A stretch of DNA of 64,000 nucleotides. It comes from an uncultured Ohtaekwangia sp. GTDB lineage: Bacteria; Bacteroidota; Bacteroidia; Cytophagales; Cyclobacteriaceae. Below are positions 878 to 12,835 of this stretch, one piece after another. A model generated the notes under the pieces. The model made no database searches. It saw only the letters and a list, made by a program, of their open reading frames with translations, and was not told the DNA's origin. The stretch spans positions 36,676-100,675 of the forward strand of contig CAZBCP010000016.1 in NCBI GenBank assembly GCA_964490505.1, given 5' to 3'. The position numbers were made by a program, and so were the translations under genes. How positions within the stretch are numbered: the stretch's first letter is position 1; the number at the start of each line of letters is the position of its first letter.

Positions 878-1106
878 TGTCAAGAACTTTTTATTTGGGG
901 GATGGAAAGAAAAATGCCACCTATAGAAAGACTTGCCATTGCATTTCTTATGGAAGAAGCTCAAAGCCGGATTTGAGTATACCCAGTTGATTTACCGGTT
1001 AGGCGCCAGATTCGACTAAACAACCCTGGCGCGAGGCGCGCCACGCGACCCTGGATCCGTTGAAAAAATACTCAAAAACAAGAAAGATTTCCTCTCAGAA
1101 GTCTTT

Positions 1107-1124
1107 AAGTCGGGGTGAGAGGAT
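1107..1124. repeat. Distal att-like direct repeat (copy of the tRNA-Pro 3' end)
   Basis: AAGTCGGGGTGAGAGGAT is identical to 12758-12775. The bases immediately flanking it on both sides differ between the two copies. Confidence 0.8.
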
Positions 1125-1429
1125 GAGGAAGGCTCTTTAAATCTTAACTATTTAGATGAATTTCGAGTATTGAGAGAACGAAGGGCACGGATAGGGCATA
1201 GCGGTTTGTAGTGCTTGGGGTAAAGGTAAGAATTGACAGTCCATTACAATCAAATTCAATACGATTTGTGATTTTACGTTAAAAAGACAGGCTGCGCAAG
1301 TGTGACTCATTATTGGGCAGTTTGGTTCTAGCAGTTTGTTTTAATAATTTCACAAGGAGCCCTTCCCTCGGCAACTGCCAAGGGTGAGGGCTTTTTACGT
1401 AAAGACGTAACCACGCCTAGCTCAGACGC

Positions 1430-2224
1430 ATGAATCACACCCCACCAATACAACTTCCTTACGGCACTCATTCAGTAGCATATTACTGTAAGAAGGAACC
1501 TACCAGTGTTGTACTTTTTATTCACGGATTTCTCGGAAATGCTACCTCTACGTGGGATGAATTTCCAGCTCTAATTCGCGAGCGGCGGGATTTTGAAAAT
1601 TCAGACGTGATCTTTTATGGATACGACAGCGAAAAAGGACAAGCAAGTAACAATGCGCTCAAGTTTTATGAGTTTCTTAAAATTGCCCTAGTACAAACTC
1701 CAGGGACAATAAATTATCAACGCCGCGGGTTGCCTGAAAGCTTTCAATACTCAAAAATAATTTTCGTCGCACATTCACTGGGTTCAATTGTTCTACGGCG
1801 GGCGCTGTTAAACGCGAAAGCTGAAAAATGTAAGTGGCTCGAAAAAGAAAAAATGGTGCTCTTTGCACCAGCTCATCGCGGCGCGCGTGTTCAAAAATTA
1901 ATCTTTGATTCGCTCAATAGCTTTGGAAAAGTCATCGCTGGCCTTGGATTTTTTGGAATACCTGTACTAGATGACTTGCGACCTGAGTCGGTCACGATTA
2001 CAAGCTTAATCAAGGATACCGAAGCTTTACTTCAAAAAAATGAGGGAGAATTCACGAAGGCTCATACTGTAATCTGGGCCGGCAACGAGTACGTTGTCCA
2101 CAACGAGAGATTTTGCGAAGATCCAATTGCAAAGGTAATCGGTGACAAAACTCACAGTGAAGTTTGTAAGCCTATAGAAAAAAAATTTCTTGATCCAATC
2201 GAATTTGTTATCAAAGCATTATGA
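1430..2224 (+). CDS. Alpha/beta-hydrolase fold protein (lipase/esterase-like, PGAP1/DUF676-like)
   Basis: VVLFIHGFLGN (oxyanion region), nucleophile elbow FVAHSLGS (Ser116, codon 1775-1777), and a C-terminal DKTHSEVCKP His motif. The stop overlaps the next gene's start (ATGA at 2221-2224). Confidence 0.7.
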   Translation: MNHTPPIQLPYGTHSVAYYCKKEPTSVVLFIHGFLGNATSTWDEFPALIRERRDFENSDVIFYGYDSEKGQASNNALKFYEFLKIALVQTPGTINYQRRGLPESFQYSKIIFVAHSLGSIVLRRALLNAKAEKCKWLEKEKMVLFAPAHRGARVQKLIFDSLNSFGKVIAGLGFFGIPVLDDLRPESVTITSLIKDTEALLQKNEGEFTKAHTVIWAGNEYVVHNERFCEDPIAKVIGDKTHSEVCKPIEKKFLDPIEFVIKAL

Positions 2225-5200
2225 AAGATTTGGCACGAGAATTCAATTTTGACATCATCGTTGGGCAATACCGCTTGACGGGCCAAGCGGAGCAGGCACA
2301 CAAATTATTGAAGGTTTACTTAAGTGGCAGTGAGGGGAATTTGGCTGAGAAGCTTCGCGATCATAGAAGAAAATCTATTGGTGAGGATGAAACCCAATTT
2401 CGAGATGATGTTGATGTATTGCTTGACTTCTATTCAATCATTCAGGTAGGGCAAATAGCAAACTACTTCCCAGCGAATCTTCCTGACTGGTTTAAACAAG
2501 AAATTCTTGAAATTCTCGGTAACGCAGACGTTAGACGATACTACGAGGAATACTATCCCCTTTCGCTTCCCCAAGGATTGCTGCGTGTTGCCCAAGATGA
2601 TTTACATTTCAATGGGGTTGAGAGCGTCGAAGGAACAATACTATTTGAAAAATTTCTTTTGATCGTATCCGCAAACAAAGATGCAGACATAGAGTTGTTT
2701 CTTTGGCTCTTAGACAGCGGTTCGGTTGATGGTTACGTTTTAGATGACTTATGGCGAGTTTTTCAAAATCGAGAATTAATTGACCGTAAGTTGGCTAGCG
2801 ACACTAACCATCCATTAAATCGAGCGCTGTGGGGATTCATAAAGTATATTCAATTTCTTTCCGACTATAAAGCTCTACTGGTTCAGGCGCGACGATTTAC
2901 TTTGCTTCAATCGGCGCTTTGGCAATATCAAGCTTATTGGTTTTCGAAAATGAAAGATCGTCTCGGTGAAATCATTAGTGTCGCTATCGACAACATCATT
3001 CTCGCCGCCAACAACCTCGACCCCGGGGCTTTAATTGCAGGTGATTCCCTTATTTCTGACGAAAGCGACGTGCAAGTTTGGAAACATTCTGTTGAAAAAC
3101 TAAACCTTATCAAGCAGGACATAACGTTTCTTATGAATACGGAACTCGGCATGCCTTATAAGAAATTCATTTTGAGTGCGATCGAAACTAAACGACCAAT
3201 GAATCTTCTTGAAAAGCTTTTAAGGGAAAAAATCGAGAAAGGTGATGTCAAATTTGATATTTATGTTTTAAAGGGATTCGCAAATGATATACTGAGAAAT
3301 GTCTCCGATGTCATTGAGCCTGTCGCCATTCTCCCATTTGACGAAACATTGAAGCTTGACTTAGATAAAATAACAAATAGTTTCCTTGATCTAATCACTT
3401 CGATTAGACAAATACATTCGAATAAGCCGTTCTATATGTCCTTTGAATCGCTGCTATTCTTGTCGAGGGAGATGAATTTGGACCAGCTTAAGAAGCGTTT
3501 TTTAGTCATTGAAAACAATTTTTTCAACGAATATGTAAATCAAAGTAACTATGACGGTGTCGACTTCGAACATACACTTGATAGTGGAAAGGAAATCCCG
3601 GAATCTGGTTTGTTCTATTCATTTTATTCAAACGCTGCATGGAGAAATGGCGAGCTGTTGGTTCAATATATTGATGGCATTCCAGAAGAGTTTAGCAGTG
3701 TATCGAAGGCATATTTGATTGGTGACGGCCCTAAATCATTGAAACTAGAATCAACTTCCTCCAGCGCCTTACCGGAAAATACAACCTTACTTCAGCCATT
3801 TCAGATTCACTACGAAGAGTTGAAACGGAAGCTGACGGAATATGAACTTGCTAACCAAATTTTTGTAATTGATAAGCGAACCCAATTCCAAAGAGAGGCT
3901 AGCGCTGAATTGAACAAGTTCCTTAGCTTTATTGAACAAGCCGGGTTGAAGTGCAAAGTCTTGCAAGTAGACGACCGAATAGACACTACTTACAGACCAG
4001 AGCTGCGTCGACTCCTTAAAGATCATTGGAACAGTGAGGTCTTCAGAACCCTGAGGATTTACGAGGATCCAGATGTCGGTAACGAGCTCATTGATATAAA
4101 TCAAGGAGCTGTTGTGGAACAGATTGTTCAACAGTTTGAGGCTGCTCAAAAAGGTGAACCGGTCCGTGACGTTTTGTTGACTGCGCCAACTGGTTCAGGA
4201 AAGTCCTTGTTGTTCCAAATGCCCGCAATGTATTTAGCTGAGAGATACTCGGCGGTTACGATTGTCATCTCGCCCCTCATTGCACTGATGAAGGACCAGG
4301 TGCTCTCTCTACAGCGCGAGCGCGGGTATCAAGGTGTCGCATTCATGAATTCGGAACTTTCATTGTCCGATCGCGCCGAGGTTATCGATAAGATAAAGTT
4401 TGGTGACGTGTCAATTCTTTACATGTCTCCGGAACTTTTACTGTCATACGAACTATCGACCTTTATTGGTAACCGTACGCTTGGACTTTTTGTCATTGAT
4501 GAAGCACACTTAGTCACGACGTGGGGCCGGGATTTTAGAGTTGACTACTGGTATCTTGGAAATTTCATTCGAAGAATCAGAAAGTTTCACCAATTCAAAT
4601 TCCCCGTCATCGCTGTCACGGCGACGGCAGTCTACAATGGTCCAAATGATATGGTCTTCGAGACTTTAGATAGCCTATCACTTGAAAATTCAATAATGTA
4701 CATTGGCAAAGTAAAAAGAGAAGAGATACATTTTGAGATTTTTGCGGCTAAATTTGGCAGCTCTCATGAAAAAGAAAAGATTTCCCTTACTGCGAAGCGA
4801 GTAACGGAGTTACTCGACGCGGGTGAAAAGATAATAGTTTATTGCCCATGGAAGAGTCAATTAAAGGCAATAAGAGATAGTCTAAGTCCGAAGCATAAAG
4901 AATTAACTGGCGTTTACTTTAGTGATCTAGTTAAAGAAATTAAGAATGAAACGTACGAAGATTTCAAAAGTGGGCGACTACGGGCTATAGTTTCAACTAA
5001 GGCATTTGGAATGGGGGTTGATATTGATGACATAACGGTTGTATATCATCATGCGCCTTCTGGTCATTTGGCGGATTACGTACAAGAAATCGGTCGGCTT
5101 GCTCGCAAAACTAATATGGTCGGTAAGGCTATGACAAATTTCAATCCTAAAGACCTTAAGTTCACCAAAATATTATACGGCTTATCGTCGATAAAACAAT

Positions 5201-6408
5201 TTCAAGTTCGCTTGGTTCTGGAAAAAATTGTGAGGCTTCAGGCTTTGAAGCAACGACGTAATTTACTAATGTCTGTTGATGACTTTCAACATATATTTAA
5301 TTTCGAAGATGTCGACGTTGAACAAAAGGTAAAAAGCACGTTACTACTCCTTGAGAAGGATCTTCTCACCAAGTATAGATATAATGTGCTATTGGCGCGT
5401 CCTAAAAGTTTGTTTACGACAGTTTTCGTCCGTTTAAAGAACGGTGATCGGTCTTCGTTTTTGGCCAAGTACTCCGCCTTTTGCAAGGCAATCCCAAATG
5501 CAAAAATTGAAATGAAAGACTCTTCAGTGTATACAATTGAATTAGATAAAATTTGGGAGAAGTATCATTCAGATGTTAGTTTCCCAGCAATCAAAAAAGA
5601 GTATTTCGACAAGACGCTCTTCGCAAAAGATAATCTTGATATAAGTCCACAACTAAAATTCACCGTGTATTTAAATCAATCCAGCCAAGACTCATTTGTC
5701 GGCATGAACGCTATGTTTGAAAAGGTCGAATTTAGTTTAGCTAAATTCGGTGGAGGCTTTTTCAAGAAGCAAGATCTGGTGAAAAACCTCCACGATGTTC
5801 TAGCCGACAGGGTTCTAGCCAAACGTATTGCCGATCTAATTGTCTCAGTATATTCTAGTCCTGTTACGGGGATCGGTGCGAAACATTCTCAATTTGTAAA
5901 AACCGAGTGTTTTATACAGCAAAAACGTTCGGAGACGGATTATGACTATAGAGTAATTAGTCGGGCCTATCCTAAGGTGAGGTCCACAATCAAGAACAGA
6001 TTCGAGAGAATGTTTGGGAAGTTGAGTGATACGGAACGTGAGCAAGTCTTCTTCCTTCCTGCTGACTATGACAAAAATGTCGGGATGTTTAAGATGGCCT
6101 ATGTACTTGAGGCATTTGGTCTTGGGTCATATGAGGTCAACGGAGGCGAGAAACCTGGAGTCTTCGTTCGTATAAATGATCCCTCAAAGCTAAAACGACT
6201 AGTAAGGGGTGAATATTCAAATAATCTATTGCAAGAAATTGATCGCCAACAGAAAACGTCTGTCCAGATTATGGATTATTTCTTCACTCAACAAATGTCT
6301 GACGCTCGAAGGTGGTCATTTATTGAAGCATACTTTTTAGGAAAACCTACGGAAGAACTGATTGGTGAGAGTCTCTTGCTGGAAGGCGAGGAGGACGACG
6401 ACGCGTAA
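2221..6408 (+). CDS. Giant RecQ-like SF2 helicase (1395 aa) with uncharacterised N- and C-terminal regions
   Basis: Motif I LLTAPTGSGKS (K661). Motif II FVIDEAHLVTTWGRDFR, the RecQ-type DEAH..WG.DFR (D760-H763). Motif III AVTATA. Motif V/VI STKAFGMGVDIDD...YVQEIGRLAR. The helicase core spans ~aa 640-965. About 640 aa before it and ~430 aa after it (acidic tail EGEEDDDA) carry no motif I recognise. Confidence 0.85.
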   Translation: MKDLAREFNFDIIVGQYRLTGQAEQAHKLLKVYLSGSEGNLAEKLRDHRRKSIGEDETQFRDDVDVLLDFYSIIQVGQIANYFPANLPDWFKQEILEILGNADVRRYYEEYYPLSLPQGLLRVAQDDLHFNGVESVEGTILFEKFLLIVSANKDADIELFLWLLDSGSVDGYVLDDLWRVFQNRELIDRKLASDTNHPLNRALWGFIKYIQFLSDYKALLVQARRFTLLQSALWQYQAYWFSKMKDRLGEIISVAIDNIILAANNLDPGALIAGDSLISDESDVQVWKHSVEKLNLIKQDITFLMNTELGMPYKKFILSAIETKRPMNLLEKLLREKIEKGDVKFDIYVLKGFANDILRNVSDVIEPVAILPFDETLKLDLDKITNSFLDLITSIRQIHSNKPFYMSFESLLFLSREMNLDQLKKRFLVIENNFFNEYVNQSNYDGVDFEHTLDSGKEIPESGLFYSFYSNAAWRNGELLVQYIDGIPEEFSSVSKAYLIGDGPKSLKLESTSSSALPENTTLLQPFQIHYEELKRKLTEYELANQIFVIDKRTQFQREASAELNKFLSFIEQAGLKCKVLQVDDRIDTTYRPELRRLLKDHWNSEVFRTLRIYEDPDVGNELIDINQGAVVEQIVQQFEAAQKGEPVRDVLLTAPTGSGKSLLFQMPAMYLAERYSAVTIVISPLIALMKDQVLSLQRERGYQGVAFMNSELSLSDRAEVIDKIKFGDVSILYMSPELLLSYELSTFIGNRTLGLFVIDEAHLVTTWGRDFRVDYWYLGNFIRRIRKFHQFKFPVIAVTATAVYNGPNDMVFETLDSLSLENSIMYIGKVKREEIHFEIFAAKFGSSHEKEKISLTAKRVTELLDAGEKIIVYCPWKSQLKAIRDSLSPKHKELTGVYFSDLVKEIKNETYEDFKSGRLRAIVSTKAFGMGVDIDDITVVYHHAPSGHLADYVQEIGRLARKTNMVGKAMTNFNPKDLKFTKILYGLSSIKQFQVRLVLEKIVRLQALKQRRNLLMSVDDFQHIFNFEDVDVEQKVKSTLLLLEKDLLTKYRYNVLLARPKSLFTTVFVRLKNGDRSSFLAKYSAFCKAIPNAKIEMKDSSVYTIELDKIWEKYHSDVSFPAIKKEYFDKTLFAKDNLDISPQLKFTVYLNQSSQDSFVGMNAMFEKVEFSLAKFGGGFFKKQDLVKNLHDVLADRVLAKRIADLIVSVYSSPVTGIGAKHSQFVKTECFIQQKRSETDYDYRVISRAYPKVRSTIKNRFERMFGKLSDTEREQVFFLPADYDKNVGMFKMAYVLEAFGLGSYEVNGGEKPGVFVRINDPSKLKRLVRGEYSNNLLQEIDRQQKTSVQIMDYFFTQQMSDARRWSFIEAYFLGKPTEELIGESLLLEGEEDDDA

Positions 6409-6667
6409 GTAGAATGAATGATATCACCGCTGGGTCTTGATTCAATAAACAACCCGATTCGTCTGGATTTGTTGTTGTAGTTACTGATGTTGGAATGTGG
6501 GTAACTCAACGGAATGCCATTTGGCCGCACGATCTTTTACGAGTTATCCAGATTTCGACATCGGACCTGGCTCAACCTGACCTTAAAACGACCTCAAAAT
6601 CAACTTTTCAAGTATCAGAATGGCCGAGTTCCGAGGCCCATTCGCGATATGATCAACGTGTCTCTCG

Positions 6668-6757
6668 TACGAATGTGTATACATTCGTACATCTTGCCGA
6701 AACCACAAATCGGGTTTCTGTGTCCTACGAATGCGCCAGCATTCGTACATCTTGCCG
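6668..6757. repeat. Two copies of a 32-nt hairpin-containing direct repeat (TACGAATG-N6-CATTCGTACATCTTGCCG)
   Basis: Copy 1 at 6668-6699 (loop GTGTAT... tacgaatgTGTATAcattcgta) and copy 2 at 6726-6757 (tacgaatgCGCCAGcattcgta). Each has perfect 8-bp arms and the same 10-nt tail CATCTTGCCG. No U-run follows on either strand. Confidence 0.8.
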
Positions 6758-6791: not shown

Positions 6792-7694
6792 TCACTTCCA
6801 AGGTCCTGGCGCAAGCCATCTTTTTGCTCCTTTTTTAGTACTGATTTGATCTACGACTGGCGATAGGAAATTTGTAACCGCATTCACGATTTCCTCAAAA
6901 GACGCGGGCAGATGCTCCGACTTTAACCTGTTTCTAAAAGCACTCCATTGGAGCTGCTTTTCCTTTATAAAATCGGGACCGAAAACAAACAAGTTCAGAG
7001 GAAGATCAGTGCCTCGTTGGTGGAAGGTCAGTCGAATGGCTTCAGCTAAATGCGTCGATTCAAAATCGAATTGCCGCGAGAGACTCCAGATGTCAAAAAA
7101 ATCTTTCATTCGACTGTTCAGTCTTCCAAGACTTATCGCGGCTTCGAACTTTTCAGCAATGGAACTCTCTCGCGTGTAGCACAATAGTTTCGCTGGCAAA
7201 AAGCCTAACATTGAAGGCAATTCAATTAATTGTGCCGAAGGGTGAACAATATCTCCAAATCCAATATCGATTTGCATTGGTATCTCAGCATTCCCTAAGA
7301 AGCCTTTAAATGTTATTCTGAGGCCGTGACAGTCGGCATCTTCAGTGATACGTTCGACAGTTGATGAGGTCCTATCGAATTCTAATCCGTCAGCCTCTAC
7401 AGGAGTTGCAATGATGTCGTTTATCATTTGAAGGACAGCGCCTTCATCATTCTTGGTCTTCCCCAGCATGTCGATGTCTCTGGTCGGTCTTGTCTCGCTC
7501 GCTTGCCACACCCTAAGCATTAATGCTCCCTTCAATACGAACAATTTCGCATGACTAGACTTACTCCAACGATAAAGGAATCTATCCATGGCAAAGTAGT
7601 GTAACAACTCGTTGAAGGGTCTTTTGTCTTTTCGGGCCTGATCCAATAATCGAGCGTGAATTGACGCAGCAATATTTTTAATGGATTTATTCAT
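6792..7694 (-). CDS. abiEii: AbiEii/AbiGii-family nucleotidyltransferase toxin (type IV TA / abortive infection)
   Basis: N-terminal MNKSIKNIAASIHARLLDQARK..., pol-beta NTase motif LKGALML...RPTRDIDML, length 300 aa. Start overlaps the stop of the upstream AbiEi gene (ATGA). Confidence 0.85.
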   Translation of the reverse strand: MNKSIKNIAASIHARLLDQARKDKRPFNELLHYFAMDRFLYRWSKSSHAKLFVLKGALMLRVWQASETRPTRDIDMLGKTKNDEGAVLQMINDIIATPVEADGLEFDRTSSTVERITEDADCHGLRITFKGFLGNAEIPMQIDIGFGDIVHPSAQLIELPSMLGFLPAKLLCYTRESSIAEKFEAAISLGRLNSRMKDFFDIWSLSRQFDFESTHLAEAIRLTFHQRGTDLPLNLFVFGPDFIKEKQLQWSAFRNRLKSEHLPASFEEIVNAVTNFLSPVVDQISTKKGAKRWLAPGPWK

Positions 7695-8302
7695 ATGATT
7701 GCTTCAAGGTATGGGCGTATTTGCTTTTCAACACGACAAATGCGGGCATACTTAAGAAGGCGTTCTGTATTAATTCGTTGGAGCGACCTATACTTTTTAA
7801 GAGCTTCAAGAAAAACATCCAGCCCAATCTTGTTCCTAAATTTGAAACAGTCAGCAAGGGTTTTTTCAGGATTGTATATTTTGACCATTACACCGTCAAC
7901 ATTATGTTTTTCTATTCCCTCCTCGTAAGCTTTTCCTCTAAATCTATATACCTTAATCGGGGGGTAACTCAGTCGAGGTGTGCGAGATTTTTCTGGAAGG
8001 GCAATTGATACCTCATGGGGAATCTGAGTTGTTAGTCGATGAAACGAAAGAGATGAAATAAGGCATATAACACCGCTACGGATTGAAAGCGCCGTTGTTA
8101 CCAGATCAGGATTTGACTGGGATTGCATCGATTTTAGTCTATAAACCCCCCTTGCCACAAGTTCCAGGCGTTTAGAACGGACGAGGTTGGTGAGAGTTCT
8201 CGCATAAATTCCTGAAGAAATTGCTTCCTTACTTCGAACAACACCACCTTTTTGTTTTATCCAATTCATTGCACGCTCAGAGGCTTTCTCAACGGTTCTC
8301 AT
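7691..8302 (-). CDS. abiEi: AbiEi-family antitoxin/transcriptional regulator (wHTH N-terminal domain)
   Basis: WIKQKGGVVRSKEAISSGIYARTLTNLVRSKRLELVARGVYRL is the typical AbiEi N-terminal wHTH. I place the start at Met18 of the track ORF (ATG 8300-8302), because the upstream 51 nt contain the promoter and operator. Confidence 0.8.
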   Translation of the reverse strand: MRTVEKASERAMNWIKQKGGVVRSKEAISSGIYARTLTNLVRSKRLELVARGVYRLKSMQSQSNPDLVTTALSIRSGVICLISSLSFHRLTTQIPHEVSIALPEKSRTPRLSYPPIKVYRFRGKAYEEGIEKHNVDGVMVKIYNPEKTLADCFKFRNKIGLDVFLEALKKYRSLQRINTERLLKYARICRVEKQIRPYLEAII

Positions 8303-8313
8303 AATGAATAGTA

Positions 8314-8338
8314 TTGTATATACTTGTATACAAATATA
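8314..8338 (-). promoter_or_regulatory. abiE promoter -7 box overlapping an inverted-repeat operator
   Basis: Inverted repeat TTGTATA-N6-TATACAA at 8314-8333. On the minus strand, TATATTTG (8331-8338) matches the Bacteroidota -7 consensus TAnnTTTG. Both lie 12-36 nt upstream of the abiEi ATG. Confidence 0.55.
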
Positions 8339-8450
8339 AGCGCATTTACGCATAATGGTGTGTGCCTTAGCTTTAAAAGCGTAGGCGTAAATGGGGAAAA
8401 CACTCCAATTTGAATTTTCACATATTTAACTTTTTCTTAATTTTAATTGA

Positions 8451-8495
8451 GCCCCTCTGAAATGCCGAAAGTTGCATTTCCGTGGGCTTTTTTTT
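8451..8495 (+). terminator. Intrinsic-terminator-like hairpin + T8 immediately upstream of the small-ORF array
   Basis: GCCC-CTCT-GAAATGC / loop CGAAAGTT / GCATTTC-CGT-GGGC followed by TTTTTTTT (8488-8495). It sits 22 nt before the ATG at 8518, and no plus-strand gene lies upstream of it. Confidence 0.5.
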
Positions 8496-8517
8496 GCTAA
8501 CCCTTAACGTCAAATTC

Positions 8518-8742
8518 ATGGATGAATCCCAAATAGTTGTAAGACTAGATGCAGTCATCAAACTCCTTGCAGTTGGGCTAATCAAAGGAAAGAGCAATGT
8601 CGAGGCAATCGAAATACTAGGGTCAACAGGACTCGATCGGAACACGATAGCTTCGATTATTGGAGTAGCACCAGCCCAAGTAAGAGCGAGGCTGTCAGAA
8701 TTAAAAAAGAGAAATAAGAAAAAGCATGACCGACAAAACTGA
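8518..8742 (+). CDS. Small HTH protein with Lys-rich C-terminal tail (paralog 1 of 6)
   Basis: MDESQIVVRLDAVIKLLAVGLIKGKSNVEAIEILGSTGLDRNTIASIIGVAPAQVRARLSELKKRNKKKHDRQN. It has a hydrophobic helix, a sigma70-region-4/LuxR-like HTH and a polyK tail. The track's GTG at 8482 lies inside the terminator hairpin, so I use the ATG at 8518. Confidence 0.6.
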   Translation: MDESQIVVRLDAVIKLLAVGLIKGKSNVEAIEILGSTGLDRNTIASIIGVAPAQVRARLSELKKRNKKKHDRQN

Positions 8743-8935
8743 ACAAATTTTCGTCAGGGACATTACTCTCATCAAGAATCTCTTGTCGCATATCCTTATT
8801 CAAGGCAAGCAACAAAATGAAGCCATTAAAGCCTTGAGCAATGCTGGCCTTGAGCCAAAAGAAATTGCCGACATACTTGGAACGTCATCTAATAATGTAA
8901 GCGTAGTACTTTATCAATCAAAAAAGAAAAAATGA
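8726..8935 (+). CDS. Small HTH protein with Lys-rich C-terminal tail (paralog 2 of 6)
   Basis: ...IKNLLSHILIQGKQQNEAIKALSNAGLEPKEIADILGTSSNNVSVVLYQSKKKK. Overlaps paralog 1 by 17 nt. Confidence 0.6.
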   Translation: MTDKTEQIFVRDITLIKNLLSHILIQGKQQNEAIKALSNAGLEPKEIADILGTSSNNVSVVLYQSKKKK

Positions 8936-9118: not shown

Positions 9119-10021
9119 ATGACGTCTAACGTTTCGGATCATCGATCGAATTCGCCAGAGCAAATTGAATTTGCTGTTAAGATAATTGGTAAATCAAAGC
9201 ATCGACGATTAGTCTTTGATGCCGTCTATTTTGGAAAGAAGGCCTTTAAGACAGTTAAAGAAATAAGCGCCAAAACAAAGTTATCGGAGAAACGAGTCTT
9301 AGAGGAAGGTAAGAAGCTTGCTGATAACGGGATCATAAAACAAGCAAAGAAAGACAAGTCGACGGCATATTCAAAAGATGCCTTTTACTCGGCCAACAAA
9401 AGTAAAATTCGGAGATTCTTAGATGATCCCAAGAAGTTAGGTGGATTTCCAACGAAACGAAATGTTAGTGTCAAAGTCAGCTTCGAGTCGATTCGAATTC
9501 CAACGAAGTCTTTCAAAATCAAAGCCATTACGATCGATGATATAGATTCATTTAGAAAAGTAAGGGGCCTTTATGAATCCACCTTCGATATTTCAGTGCT
9601 GTCCGAAACTCAATTTAAGAACGGAGTTCTCGGAATAATTGGAGAAAGAGGTGTGTTTAAAGATTGGGGAGGTGAGGTCAATGACTTATTAACAACAAGA
9701 GTTAAATACAAAGGCGCAAGAATATCGGCCGCTTTTGCATTTAAAGGTCCGGGAACAAAGGGTAAGCTTACCATAGCAAAGATGGGAAAAAACGGAGATC
9801 AAGTTTTGAGGCTATTCAAAAGTCCTGCTGACTTATTTATCCTGCAATACTGGTCCGAAATAGATCAGCGTGTGATTGAAGAGGTCGAATCGCACGCCAA
9901 AATTGCTTCATTATCGAATTTTGGGAAGGAAGTTCTCTATTGTGTAATCGATGGGCAAGATTCCGCTCGTATAGTTCAAGCTTATCGGGAGTTTTTCAAT
10001 TCAAGTAAAAAACGGAAGTAA
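9119..10021 (+). CDS. wHTH protein with an uncharacterised C-terminal domain (possible Mrr-like PD-(D/E)xK fold)
   Basis: The N-terminal ~90 aa look like a winged helix (VFDAVYFGKKAFKTVKEISAKTKLSEKRVLEEGKKLADNGIIKQ). The C-terminal FKDWGGEVNDLL...AAFAFKGPG...ADLFILQYWSEID has the spacing of an Mrr-type D...(D/E)xK core. The fold assignment is inference only. Confidence 0.5.
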   Translation: MTSNVSDHRSNSPEQIEFAVKIIGKSKHRRLVFDAVYFGKKAFKTVKEISAKTKLSEKRVLEEGKKLADNGIIKQAKKDKSTAYSKDAFYSANKSKIRRFLDDPKKLGGFPTKRNVSVKVSFESIRIPTKSFKIKAITIDDIDSFRKVRGLYESTFDISVLSETQFKNGVLGIIGERGVFKDWGGEVNDLLTTRVKYKGARISAAFAFKGPGTKGKLTIAKMGKNGDQVLRLFKSPADLFILQYWSEIDQRVIEEVESHAKIASLSNFGKEVLYCVIDGQDSARIVQAYREFFNSSKKRK

Positions 10022-10043: not shown

Positions 10044-10250
10044 ATGAAAAAGGACCCCAGTGAGAAAGAACTTCTTTTTGAGATAAATGAAAATCTCAAG
10101 AGGCTGATCGCAGTTGTCTCAACACAAGGACTAGACGATGAAACTAAGATCAAAATGTTAACTTCAATGAAGTACAGTTCTTATGATATCTCTGAAATGA
10201 CCGGAATCCCTGCACGAAGTATCAGGCGTAAAACCAGTAAACAAAAATAA
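10044..10250 (+). CDS. Small HTH protein with basic C-terminal tail (paralog 4 of 6)
   Basis: ...LKRLIAVVSTQGLDDETKIKMLTSMKYSSYDISEMTGIPARSIRRKTSKQK. Confidence 0.55.
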   Translation: MKKDPSEKELLFEINENLKRLIAVVSTQGLDDETKIKMLTSMKYSSYDISEMTGIPARSIRRKTSKQK

Positions 10251-10253
10251 CGG

Positions 10254-10475
10254 ATGAAAAAGGAACAAGAATCCGAGCCACGACTACCAAGTTTAGCGTT
10301 GGTTTTCGGTTACATTGCTGTCAAAGATTTTCAACGAATCGACGATCGAATAGAGGTCCTTTCAAGACTCGGCTACGGAAATAATGAAATTGCGCTGATC
10401 TGCGGTTCAACAGCCGGGAGGGTGGCAGTATCAAAGAGTATCCTCAAGAAGAAAACAAAAAAGGCCAAAAAATGA
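10254..10475 (+). CDS. Small HTH protein with Lys-rich C-terminal tail (paralog 5 of 6)
   Basis: ...LALVFGYIAVKDFQRIDDRIEVLSRLGYGNNEIALICGSTAGRVAVSKSILKKKTKKAKK. Starts 3 nt after the paralog 4 stop. Confidence 0.6.
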   Translation: MKKEQESEPRLPSLALVFGYIAVKDFQRIDDRIEVLSRLGYGNNEIALICGSTAGRVAVSKSILKKKTKKAKK

Positions 10476-10678
10476 AGTCTCGAGAGATCACGGACGAAAA
10501 AAGACAAACCCTTATGTTGGGTTATCTCTGTGTGGCTACTGAAATCGGATCAAGCATTGAACGAAAGGTACAAATCCTAGATCGGTTCGCGTTAAAGGAT
10601 GCAGAAATTGCGATCATTTGTAATTGCGCCCCACAGTCAGTTTTGAATGCCCGTCAAAAGAATAAAAAGAAGAAGTGA
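10472..10678 (+). CDS. Small HTH protein with Lys-rich C-terminal tail (paralog 6 of 6)
   Basis: ...LMLGYLCVATEIGSSIERKVQILDRFALKDAEIAIICNCAPQSVLNARQKNKKKK. ATGA overlap with paralog 5. Confidence 0.6.
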   Translation: MKSREITDEKRQTLMLGYLCVATEIGSSIERKVQILDRFALKDAEIAIICNCAPQSVLNARQKNKKKK

Positions 10679-10679
10679 T

Positions 10680-11201
10680 ATGGCGAGAACTCCAGCCATA
10701 ATAAAGCTGCCGGATGAATATGCTAATGCATTAAAGTTGGGGCCACCAACTTTCAGTACTATTTTCCAATTCGAGAACGGTCTTCGTATTCTGGTGAACA
10801 ATTATCTGGTAACGCTCTATGGTCAAGACTGGTGGGAGCAGTCGTTAAAAATTAGGATGCGTCCAATATACGACTATGTAGAAGATCAGAAAAACAAACG
10901 AAGTTTTATGCCTTGGATTGGTGACTCACCATCCGTCCAGTTGCTTCCCTTGCATTCGATTACCTTAGGGCACCTTGAGCAAATCGTCATCCATTATCGG
11001 TCCGACTGTGTTCCCGAGTTATTTCCAACATTGGACTTTTTTACCGGGCATCTTTTGGTCATTAAGAAGGTTAGAAATCTTTTTGCACACATGTATCCTT
11101 GTGTAGATAAGCAAGATCTTCAAACGTTAAAGCGAGAAGTTAAGACTCTTACAGAGCACATCGAGGTTAAGATCCGTCAGTATCCATCAATTATCCCATG
11201 A
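10680..11201 (+). CDS. HEPN-domain protein (Swt1-like HEPN, predicted RNase)
   Basis: Rx4H motif R-N-L-F-A-H (nt 11073-11090, KKVRNLFAHMYP). The N-terminal FENGLRILVNNYLVTLYGQDWWE is typical of Swt1-like HEPN proteins. I use the ATG at 10680 (MARTPAI), 1 nt after the paralog 6 stop; the track start at 10647 would overlap paralog 6. Confidence 0.65.
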   Translation: MARTPAIIKLPDEYANALKLGPPTFSTIFQFENGLRILVNNYLVTLYGQDWWEQSLKIRMRPIYDYVEDQKNKRSFMPWIGDSPSVQLLPLHSITLGHLEQIVIHYRSDCVPELFPTLDFFTGHLLVIKKVRNLFAHMYPCVDKQDLQTLKREVKTLTEHIEVKIRQYPSIIP

Positions 11202-12398
11202 GTTTTTTCTTCAACACCCTCATATCCTCACTCACCTTCCTCTCCACGACCTTCGCATAAATCTGCGTTGTCCTAATCGAAGTATGCCCCAACATCTTCG
11301 ATACCGTCTCTATCGGAACACCATTCGTTAAAGTTACGGTCGTAGCAAACGTATGCCTCGCCAAATGAAACGTCATGTGTTTCAAACACCACACACATCC
11401 GCGATCTCTTTCAAGTACGCATCCAACTTCTGATTCGACATCTGCGGAAACAACCGATCAAATCCATACCTTCTATATTTCTCGATCAAAACCAACGCCT
11501 TTGGTAGCAAAGGCACACGGACAGGCAGGTTAGTCTTTTTTCTCGTCATCATTATCCACCAATCTCCATCAATTCCCTTACAAATGTTTTCCGGTTTCAG
11601 TATCATCACCTCGTTATACGCTAAACCAGTATAGCAACTGAACACGAATAAATCCCTCACATAACCCAACCTTTCTACAGCGAATTCCTTTGCTTCTATT
11701 GCCTTCAAATCTTCCAGTGAAAGGAAATGCCTCTCCTTCTTAATAAACCTCGCCTGGAACTTTATAAACGGGTCCTTGTCGATCCATTCATTGCGCAAGG
11801 CAACGCCGATCATCTTGCGAAGTCTCTCAATGTGTTTGAGGATTGTGTTATGTCCACAAGGCCTATCATCATTCGGCTTCTTTAAATTCTTCAAGAACAG
11901 TTCAAAGTCAATCAAAAACCTATAATTCAAATGGCTCAACGGCAAGTCCTGCACTCGAATGACTTCATTTAAGAACCTTTGAATGTATTTCTGGGTGGTC
12001 TCGTAATTCTTCATCGTTCCCCACTCCAGCTTTGACTTCAAATGATTGTTGTGGTAATCTATTAGACCGAGCAAAGTGTGTTCGGTCGGGGCAATACCGC
12101 AGTATAGATTCTTGATCGCTTCGACGGTCACAGGTTGGCGTTGCATCCGAAGCTCCGTGCAAATGTTGGTAAGGTCGGTTCTAATCCGATCAAGATAAGC
12201 ATTGAACTGCCTCACCTCGGGTCGAGTACCGGAAAGACATCCCCTCGACATATCCCAGGAACTCACGTCGACTCTTCTTTTCACCGACACATCTACCGTT
12301 CGTCCGTCTACGCCAATCCTCACGTACACCGGCGTCATTCCATTCGATTCCTTATCACGCTTCACAAAGAATCTAACCGCCAATACATTCGTCATCAT
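11191..12398 (-). pseudogene. Bacteroidota-type tyrosine recombinase/integrase, split by a single frameshift
   Basis: ORF 11382-12398 carries the arm-binding N-terminus plus the core-binding domain and ends ...LKEIADVCGV*. ORF 11191-11394, in another frame, continues LKHMTFHLARHTFAT...LGHTSIRTTQIYAKV, which holds the catalytic R, H-x-x-R and Y. The junction is at the run GGTGTTTGAAAC (minus strand, ~11382-11394). One extra T would restore CGV-LKHMTFHLARH. Confidence 0.75.
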
Positions 12399-12757: not shown

Positions 12758-12775
12758 AAGTCGGGGTGAGAGGAT
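12758..12775. repeat. tRNA-proximal att-like direct repeat
   Basis: AAGTCGGGGTGAGAGGAT, identical to 1107-1124. It covers tRNA-Pro positions ~59-73 plus 3 nt downstream. Confidence 0.8.
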
Positions 12776-12835
12776 TCGAACCTCCGACCTCTACGTCCCG
12801 AACGTAGCGCACTAGCCGGGCTGTGCTACACCCCG
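12761..12835 (-). tRNA. tRNA-Pro: tRNA-Pro (anticodon CGG)
   Basis: Hand-folded 75-nt cloverleaf: CGGGGTG TA GCAC AGCCCGGCTA GTGC G CTACG TTCGGGA CGTAG AGGTC GGAGG TTCGAAT CCTCT CACCCCG A. The acceptor stem is fully paired, the T-loop is TTCGAAT, and the anticodon loop TT-CGG-GA gives the anticodon. No CCA is encoded. Confidence 0.9.

Follow-up and report, generated by a model that had tools for sequence, protein, structure and literature searches.

A hydrolase cassette and a RecQ-like helicase of Bacteroidota defence islands joined in one reading frame by an apparent stop-loss fusion

Introduction

Alpha/beta-hydrolases are documented as latent death effectors in defence modules, where the hydrolase is toxic only when licensed and the zymogen is cleaved twice (Evans et al. 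2025, PMC12642450). Cluster 193 of the type III CRISPR-cas accessory proteins (C3a193), with three members located beside type III-B/D cassettes, received the label 'poss. alt. Cas3' without experiment (Shah et al. 2019, PMC6546367). Here we analyse a locus related to both, carried on a 64,000-nucleotide (nt) stretch (hereafter the window) of contig CAZBCP010000016.1 from an uncultured Ohtaekwangia sp. A gene coding for a hydrolase is followed there by a large open reading frame (ORF) with a RecQ-like superfamily 2 (SF2) helicase core, the stop of the former and the start of the latter sharing the ATGA at 2221-2224. The first-pass annotation, whose ORF coordinates and ATGA overlap agree with our ORF calls and reading of the sequence, had taken the two genes for a candidate hydrolase-helicase defence module. 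We find instead that the conserved partner of the hydrolase corresponds to the N-terminal third of the large ORF and is free-standing elsewhere, so that in the supposed 1395-amino acid (aa) helicase two genes have been fused in frame, an arrangement unique to this locus.

The hydrolase and its partner resemble the protease-licensed modules of PMC12642450 in combining a small, apparently cytoplasmic lipase-like alpha/beta-hydrolase with one adjacent regulator gene in a defence context. In those modules the partner is a sensor-fused protease of caspase-like or serine type, whereas the partner described here is predicted to be all-alpha and lacks a peptidase signature; no protease lies beside the window hydrolase, the adjacent product having no peptidase match in Pfam or PADLOC. 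Lamassu systems whose LmuA has a hydrolase or lipase domain also employ a DUF676-type hydrolase as defence effector, but the window hydrolase is a bare 264-aa catalytic domain without an LmuA match in PADLOC. LmuB and LmuC are not its partners, and no LmuB was found among the island ORFs scanned. Hachiman (HamAB) and Mokosh share with the window a general logic, an SF2 helicase gene beside a gene for a degradative enzyme, yet here the effector would be a serine hydrolase and not a nuclease, and the pairing is not conserved. No HamA, HamB or Mokosh model figured among the best 25 of the 38 PADLOC matches of the large ORF.

The helicase part belongs, by its sequence, to the C3a193 family: the PADLOC profile (PDLC01089) matches aa 594-1375 of the large ORF over profile positions 221-981 of 983 (E 5e-185). 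Unlike the founding members, it does not lie beside a type III CRISPR-cas cassette, and the neighbours in the window and in 80 further helicase loci are type I restriction-modification (R-M), BREX, AIPR or UvrD-like genes and not cas genes; its N-terminal ~270 aa are moreover unlike the first 220 profile positions. DpdF of the Dpd system has a RecQ-type SF2 core in common with the helicase (PADLOC E 1.4e-65, aa ~648-1010), but the score against the DpdF equivalog NF041063 is 131 bits for a cutoff of 550, and no Dpd component was named by Pfam or PADLOC among the island ORFs scanned. With PsyrT of PsyrTA, the core alone matches (PADLOC E 7e-53, profile positions 38-383 of 689), and no neighbour matches the PsyrA antitoxin in PADLOC, which places the locus outside PsyrTA. 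The family-specific N- and C-terminal regions of the helicase are unrelated to either DpdF or PsyrT. The first-pass annotation could assign the combination to no named system, and none was found here: in PADLOC the hydrolase and the partner domain go unmatched, and the helicase maps to the uncharacterised C3a193 alone.

Results and discussion

The large ORF unites two proteins that are separate elsewhere

Residues 6-317 of the large ORF align by BLASTP to the product of the gene that directly follows the hydrolase homologue in Flectobacillus major (40% identity, E 1e-73; locus L001), in a Chitinophagaceae metagenome-assembled genome (MAG) (E 2e-65; L004) and in Taibaiella (E 1e-27; L005). With this homology to a family of free-standing proteins, aa 1-640 can no longer be described as lacking any recognisable feature, as they were in the first-pass annotation. 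Our sample of hydrolase loci comprised 19 loci representing 10 lineages (<95% identity), with tblastn run within the loci and the partners compared in alignment A4. In all ten of these other lineages the next gene after the hydrolase codes for a homologue of the partner, free-standing and 313-401 aa long. A combined MAFFT alignment of partners and helicases (A2) misplaced the partners, and the valid comparisons are the pairwise BLASTP alignments and A4.

The remainder of the large ORF also exists on its own. Its closest relatives are free-standing proteins of 1030-1100 aa whose residues 2-23 align to ORF aa 330-347, the alignments running through to ~aa 1384. In one of them (P0058, 50% identity) residue 5 corresponds to ORF aa 331, which makes its Met1 the equivalent of Met327.

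The two modules were not found together in any other locus. The helicase is absent from every hydrolase locus (none of 10 lineages within 6-10 kb), and neither the hydrolase nor the partner lies within 8 kb of any of 80 helicase loci. Since the co-occurrence survey thus came out empty on both sides, the hydrolase-helicase module has to be given up. What stands of the two-gene proposal is a coupled cassette with an intact serine hydrolase, the conserved second member of which is the first ~321 aa of the large ORF and not the helicase. No other fusion of partner and helicase was detected among the proteins searched, and the ORF is a singleton among 5.8 billion clustered proteins. A word-index search, which is insensitive, retrieved with the full ORF only itself at full length together with core-only matches, and with the partner domain 2 proteins.

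The joint between the two parts can be placed to the codon. Six close partner lineages stop 4 or 5 residues past the equivalent of Phe316, four of the six after 5 (...KSF-LNNIK*, ...KSF-FYESK*, ...KQL-LNENE*, ...EVF-FNMNE*, ...KQL-LNQN* and ...VNF-FNEV*), while the window reads on as ...KKF-ILSAI-E-TKRP-MNLLEK..., with the GAA codon at 3184-3186 and the helicase ATG, equivalent to Met1 of the free-standing helicases, at 3199. The spacer length is divisible by three, so that one TAA-to-GAA (or equivalent) change suffices for fusion, and the fusion apparently arose by one stop-loss substitution. A frameshift origin seems less likely: by our own reading, the in-frame YKKFIL fits the consensus of partner C-termini, to which neither of the other two frames bears any resemblance, and substitution of the stop codon is therefore the simpler event.

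The long ORF is not an assembly error or a sequencing frameshift, since an independent Logan assembly of the source run, the single soil-metagenome run holding the window sequence, agrees over 1000-6756 with 0 differences at ~18x and shows no variant at the joint. Over its 4.2 kb the ORF contains no frameshift, internal stop or lost motif.

A conserved cassette of a hydrolase and an all-alpha partner

The hydrolase is a member of DUF676 (PF05057), a family of putative serine esterases (Pfam E 4.7e-7; 30.0 bits for a gathering cutoff of 20.3), with the GxSxG nucleophile and the C-terminal His conserved. The nucleophile motif is the AHSLG at aa 114-118, with Ser116, that had been noted before. 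Its homologues form 49 clusters at 38-59% identity, mostly from Bacteroidota. HGF 32-34, Asp59, H115-S116-L117-G118 and His242 are invariant in 17 homologues (alignment A1), and Asp231 nearly so. Given these invariant residues, the hydrolase looks catalytically competent, and the catalytic set is probably Ser116-Asp231-His242. No family match was obtained in PADLOC, PHROG or NCBIfam. On inspection by eye, both the hydrolase and the partner appear to lack a signal peptide and a membrane segment, and we infer that the hydrolase is a cytoplasmic effector of lipase/esterase type.

Hydrolase and partner genes are tightly coupled. They lie on the same strand, overlapping or within ~15 nt of each other, in the window and in all 10 other lineages, where the spacing ranges from -4 to +14 nt. 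The exception (L099) measures +50 nt with an ATG-only start call and -4 nt with an alternative start call. A reciprocal metagenome scan with the partner alignment contributed nine of the 19 loci, each with the hydrolase directly upstream and the partner free-standing. Where the hydrolase is more similar to its window copy, the partner tends to be so too (Spearman 0.90 between the two identities, n=10). Judged from these alignments, the hydrolase and its ~325-aa, predicted all-alpha partner constitute a two-gene cassette conserved in Bacteroidota. The partner domain itself has no match in Pfam, PADLOC or PHROG. An AlphaFold2 (AF2) model built from a 3-sequence alignment is all-alpha with 19 helices, at a predicted local distance difference test score (pLDDT) of 63, and a Foldseek search of the PDB with it returned only noise (E > 0.9).

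Several of the cassettes have known or putative defence genes as neighbours: Lamassu LmuB/LmuC (L007); a prok_STING protein, a TrwB-like protein and a resolvase (L009); a type I R-M system and two DarT/Macro pairs (L010); and ParDE with a second DUF676 protein of 388 aa (L004, 18719-19885). Another (L008, 9574-12434) is accompanied by a 455-aa DUF676 protein that matches PADLOC LmuA (E 2.9e-26), followed by a 498-aa uncharacterised protein. The second, longer DUF676 proteins of these last two loci lie a few kb away from the cassette. In two lineages the cassette closes a long row of genes on the same strand; the row in L007 (1-6982) consists of LmuC, LmuB and three uncharacterised proteins of ~470, ~800 and 210-225 aa. 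This trio recurs upstream of the cassette in L091-L094 and may be another system or be linked to the cassette.

A widespread family of RecQ-like helicases in defence islands

The helicase core contains all the RecQ-type motifs that the first-pass annotation had listed, GSGKS at 658-662 (with Lys661), DEAH at 760-763, TTWGRDFR at 766-773 and QEIGRLAR at 955-962, and thereby conforms to the RecQ-type SF2 pattern (GxGKS, DEAH, TxxGxDFR, QExGRAGR-like). Pfam finds DEAD (E 1.7e-20) and Helicase_C (E 7.6e-18) in aa 641-963, and the best solved relatives in the PDB are the cores of RecQ, RECQ5, WRN and RECQ1 (E 1e-34 to 1e-28, best 3.7e-34). The protein nonetheless scores below both NCBIfam RecQ cutoffs, 188.0 bits vs 219.8 for the family model TIGR00614 (recQ_fam) and 204.5 vs 640.2 for the equivalog TIGR01389 (recQ). 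No Pfam match to RecQ_Zn_bind, RQC or HRDC follows the core, and aa 965-1100 contain a single Cys. On these sequence criteria the helicase is not a true RecQ.

The C-terminal 431 aa gave a confident AF2 model (41-sequence alignment, pLDDT 88.9, predicted template-modelling score 0.84). A Foldseek search of PDB and BFVD found no match to it below E 0.02, and TM values stayed below 0.2; the model consequently gives no grounds for assigning a nuclease fold, or that of any other effector, to this region. The N-terminal region of the helicase differs between subfamilies. A second size class of relatives, 1200-1250 aa long, can be aligned only from ~aa 590 onward, which agrees with the extent of the C3a193 match. 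One relative on a Logan contig (P0080, 1350 aa) has an extra N-terminal 237 aa in which HEKVGIF...GSPNET, a PLD-like HxK...GSxN motif, can be discerned by eye; Pfam makes no call on this extension.

An exhaustive search of cluster representatives with aa 196-1395 retrieved 2001 representatives at E<1e-30, the best 150 all at E<1e-120. A genome scan limited to one genome per species gave 566 helicase relatives, the best 80 of which were analysed with 8-kb flanks, 78 of them with a helicase gene call. These 80 loci are spread over Bacteroidota, Bacillota, Collinsella and Saccharibacteria, with one archaeal MAG among them. In at least 28 of them the helicase adjoins or is nested in type I R-M, BREX, AIPR or UvrD-like genes. 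Type I R-M genes are near the helicase in 13 of the 78 loci, and three (L030, L034, L037) have the order hsdM-hsdS-helicase-hsdR on one strand. BREX PglX/PglZ genes are near it in four Collinsella loci, in one of which (L074) the helicase stands between PglX and PglZ. Directly upstream of the helicase we found an AIPR gene in four loci and a sigma-70-like gene in five Bacillota loci, and directly downstream (+1) a UvrD-like gene of 577 aa in seven. On the Enterococcus faecium plasmid pW142 (L100), the sigma-70-like gene overlaps the helicase gene, and the pair adjoins a type I R-M system with an hsdS shufflon.

No universal neighbour of the helicase was found in the loci analysed. Together with the defence genes and the plasmids, this suggests that the family is a mobile, defence-island-associated gene with changing companions. 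The helicases nested in R-M or BREX operons may be an accessory not yet recognised or a separate system. There is no cas gene among the recurrent neighbour clusters of the 78 loci. In a phage collection only generic RecQ-core matches were obtained, which does not support a phage origin of the family.

Origin of the fusion and proposed roles

We consider it likely that two separately inherited defence-island modules were joined here by a stop-loss fusion. This account starts from what is directly observed, namely where the domains and the joint lie, that each module is distributed independently of the other, and that the neighbourhoods are rich in defence genes. Its structural part is close to certain, and the defence roles are moderately likely. 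Module 1 would be the hydrolase gene with its tightly coupled all-alpha partner gene, and module 2 a free-standing helicase of ~1070 aa with a RecQ-type ATPase core between family-specific N- and C-terminal regions. The ancestral helicase gene would have followed the partner gene in frame after a gap of 12 nt; with GAA now at the position of the partner stop, partner and helicase would be translated as one 1395-aa protein. The fusion is probably a recent, single-substitution event and not an evolved architecture. By the same logic as for the licensed effectors of PMC12642450 and the hydrolase-type LmuA, we propose that the hydrolase may be a latent lipase/esterase-type death effector restrained or licensed by the partner. 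The helicase could be a separate nucleic-acid-directed defence ATPase or an accessory ATPase of R-M or BREX systems.

Several points weigh against this reading. The 12-nt in-frame spacing suggests that cassette and helicase already shared a transcript when they became fused, as would be expected from functional coupling and equally from compaction of the island. Neither half of the fusion shows any damage, and it may therefore be kept by selection. The arrangement occurs in one genome only, and the age of the fusion and the ancestral stop are therefore reconstructions. Gene neighbourhood is the one line of evidence that points to defence roles, and the F. major and Taibaiella cassettes sit among ordinary regulatory and metabolic genes, mostly AraC regulators, dehydrogenases and transporters. 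Finally, the partner model has low confidence, and the catalytic acid of the hydrolase could be Asp231 or Asp59.

The rival that survives best, unlikely as we hold it to be, is a functional trio in which the helicase senses or drives, the fused partner domain relays its state to the hydrolase, and the fusion or the operon is adaptive. The operonic spacing of 12 nt is its best argument and goes with three parts on one strand, the ATGA overlap, an in-frame joint, no internal terminator and catalytic motifs that are all intact in both proteins. The helicase family is also modular elsewhere, as its sigma-70-like, AIPR and UvrD-like neighbours and the N-terminal extension of P0080 indicate. The best argument against it, however, is that the modules never occur together in the 10 hydrolase lineages or the 80 helicase loci; besides, the fusion is a singleton in the clustered proteins and a single substitution is enough to create it. 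A functional fusion would amount to a defence architecture of a new kind, in which a RecQ-like translocase that is nested in R-M and BREX operons elsewhere has become covalently linked to the protein regulating a suicide effector of lipase type. Recognition of foreign DNA by the helicase would then directly release membrane- or ester-directed killing. Whether or not the fusion is functional, the cassette itself would on this reading be a new, unnamed two-gene anti-phage system of Bacteroidota. We regard the whole as a doubtful prospect.

Returning to the two-module account, the cassette might serve a purpose other than anti-phage defence, as a toxin-immunity or addiction pair or as a lipid- or ester-metabolising enzyme with its chaperone or regulator. 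The metabolic surroundings in F. major and Taibaiella and the failure of any PADLOC or PHROG model to match lend this some colour, but at least 5 of the 10 lineages, and the window, have the cassette near Lamassu, R-M, DarTG, STING, ParDE or AbiE genes or on mobile elements, and the apparent lack of export or membrane signals in both proteins also speaks against it. We regard it as rather unlikely.

Lower still we place decay, by which the island would be eroding and the stop-loss fusion would be neutral or harmful, disabling the partner, the helicase or both. A frameshifted island integrase, the uniqueness of the fusion and the otherwise strict separation of hydrolase and partner into two genes would all suit such erosion, yet 4.2 kb of ORF have been kept free of frameshifts, internal stops and motif losses, a disabled partner would be counter-selected if it restrains a toxic hydrolase, and a start at Met327 could still yield free helicase. 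Decay therefore seems quite improbable. That the helicase is the organism's housekeeping RecQ, as its core motifs and top PDB matches might at first suggest, is refuted by the family cutoffs, by its domain content and by its location in a low-GC island with att repeats, its relatives being patchily distributed and some of them on plasmids.

Under the preferred two-module reading, a plausible but wrong call of a hydrolase-helicase module gives way to three testable items, which together are not a new category: a cassette of effector and regulator, a helicase of defence islands and a fusion seen once. Neither the cassette nor the helicase family bears a name as a defence system in PADLOC v2 (2023), Pfam, NCBIfam and PHROGs, the partner being absent from PADLOC v2, PHROGs and Pfam altogether. 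The cassette is strictly conserved and found in Bacteroidota defence islands. The helicase family is very large, with >2000 representatives at 50% clustering, often nested in type I R-M and BREX operons and equipped with a confidently modelled C-terminal region without structural relative; its only earlier description was as a 'possible alternative Cas3' with three members. The fusion is a clean natural case of two defence genes joined by an apparent single stop-loss substitution, the kind of event from which new multidomain immune proteins are thought to arise. Annotation should also take a caution from it, as a giant multidomain ORF in a defence island may be a one-off read-through. What the locus mainly offers is accordingly two candidate defence systems and, within a defence island, a clear instance of genes becoming fused.

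The tRNA-Pro island

As the first-pass annotation had recognised, the genes lie in a tRNA island beside AbiE. The locus is a small integrative defence island at tRNA-Pro, spanning 11.7 kb between 18-nt direct repeats (Table 1). The proximal repeat copy overlies the 3' end of the tRNA gene; from the lengths, we estimate the chance expectation of an exact 18-nt repeat in 13 kb at ~0.001. GC content is 0.416 in the island vs 0.481 in the remainder of the window. A flanking ORF (281-877) bears a type IX secretion system (T9SS) sorting domain by Pfam, which places the host in Bacteroidota.

Table 1. Coordinates of the hydrolase, the fused ORF with its parts and the other island features within the window.
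Feature	Coordinates	Strand	Remarks
Distal att-like direct repeat AAGTCGGGGTGAGAGGAT, left island boundary	1107..1124	.	exact copy of 12758-12775
Hydrolase ORF	1430..2224	+	264 aa
Large ORF	2221..6408	+	1395 aa
Partner domain, aa 1-321 of large ORF	2221..3183	+	homologous to free-standing, predicted all-alpha protein downstream of hydrolase elsewhere
Fusion joint	3184..3198	+	GAA (E322) where most partner homologues stop, then in-frame 12-nt spacer ACTAAACGACCA
Helicase family-specific N-terminal region, aa 327-640	3199..4140	+	starts at ancestral Met327
RecQ-like SF2 ATPase core, aa 641-964	4141..5112	+	GSGKS, DEAH, TATA, QEIGRLAR
Helicase family-specific C-terminal region, aa 965-1395	5113..6408	+	alpha/beta; this region by itself matches PADLOC C3a193, E 1.9e-55
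AbiEii (6792-7694) and AbiEi (7691-8353)	6792..8353	-	known defence / toxin-antitoxin pair
Tyrosine integrase of island	11191..12398	-	frameshift near 11385-11400; Arm-DNA-bind_5 and Phage_int_SAM_5 in 338-aa ORF
tRNA-Pro(CGG) (12760-12835) and proximal 18-nt repeat copy (12758-12775)	12758..12835	-	ARAGORN; Rfam tRNA 63 bits; repeat

AbiE is identified by Pfam (AbiEii E 4e-43, AbiEi_4 E 6e-10) and by PADLOC (AbiEii E 3e-89, AbiEi E 7e-73). The integrase adjoins the tRNA gene. Its 338-aa ORF terminates in ...KEIADVCGV*, and the catalytic C-terminus (KHMTFHLARHTFAT...Y; HLARHTFAT...Y) runs on in another frame as a 67-aa ORF. The split frames point to a 1-nt indel in the GTGTGTGGTG tract, so that the island may be immobilised.

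No cas domain was found among the island ORFs by Pfam or PADLOC, and TRF revealed no CRISPR-like array in the window. Rfam and promoter/terminator scans of the island returned nothing relevant, the sigma-70 promoter model being inapplicable to Bacteroidota. Upstream of the hydrolase start by 35 nt is a GC-rich imperfect hairpin followed by TTTTT (1357-1395, +), on which a simple terminator scan is silent and which is preceded by ~230 nt without an ORF; it may terminate an upstream transcript or belong to a leader. Between the helicase part and AbiEii lies a 35-nt imperfect direct repeat (6665-6699 / 6723-6757). The contigs of the source run break exactly at this repeat (6665-6757), with alternative low-depth branches there; the metagenome thus holds further copies of the element, and it is the MAG assembly and the att repeats that connect the helicase side with AbiE.

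Elsewhere in the island, a 184-aa ORF (10647-11201, +) has a PADLOC match to PDC-M34B, a candidate component of defence systems (E 9e-12); PDC-M34A had no match among the neighbouring ORFs scanned, which were part of the island ORFs. Five small paralogous ORFs of 68-86 aa (8482-8935 and 10044-10678, +) share a motif 'EIAxIxG....V' resembling a helix-turn-helix (HTH) and a Lys-rich tail, one of them with a weak Sigma70_r4_2 match. Between the two groups lies an ORF of 300 aa (9119-10021), the N-terminal part of which is a winged HTH resembling that of CasR/Csa3.

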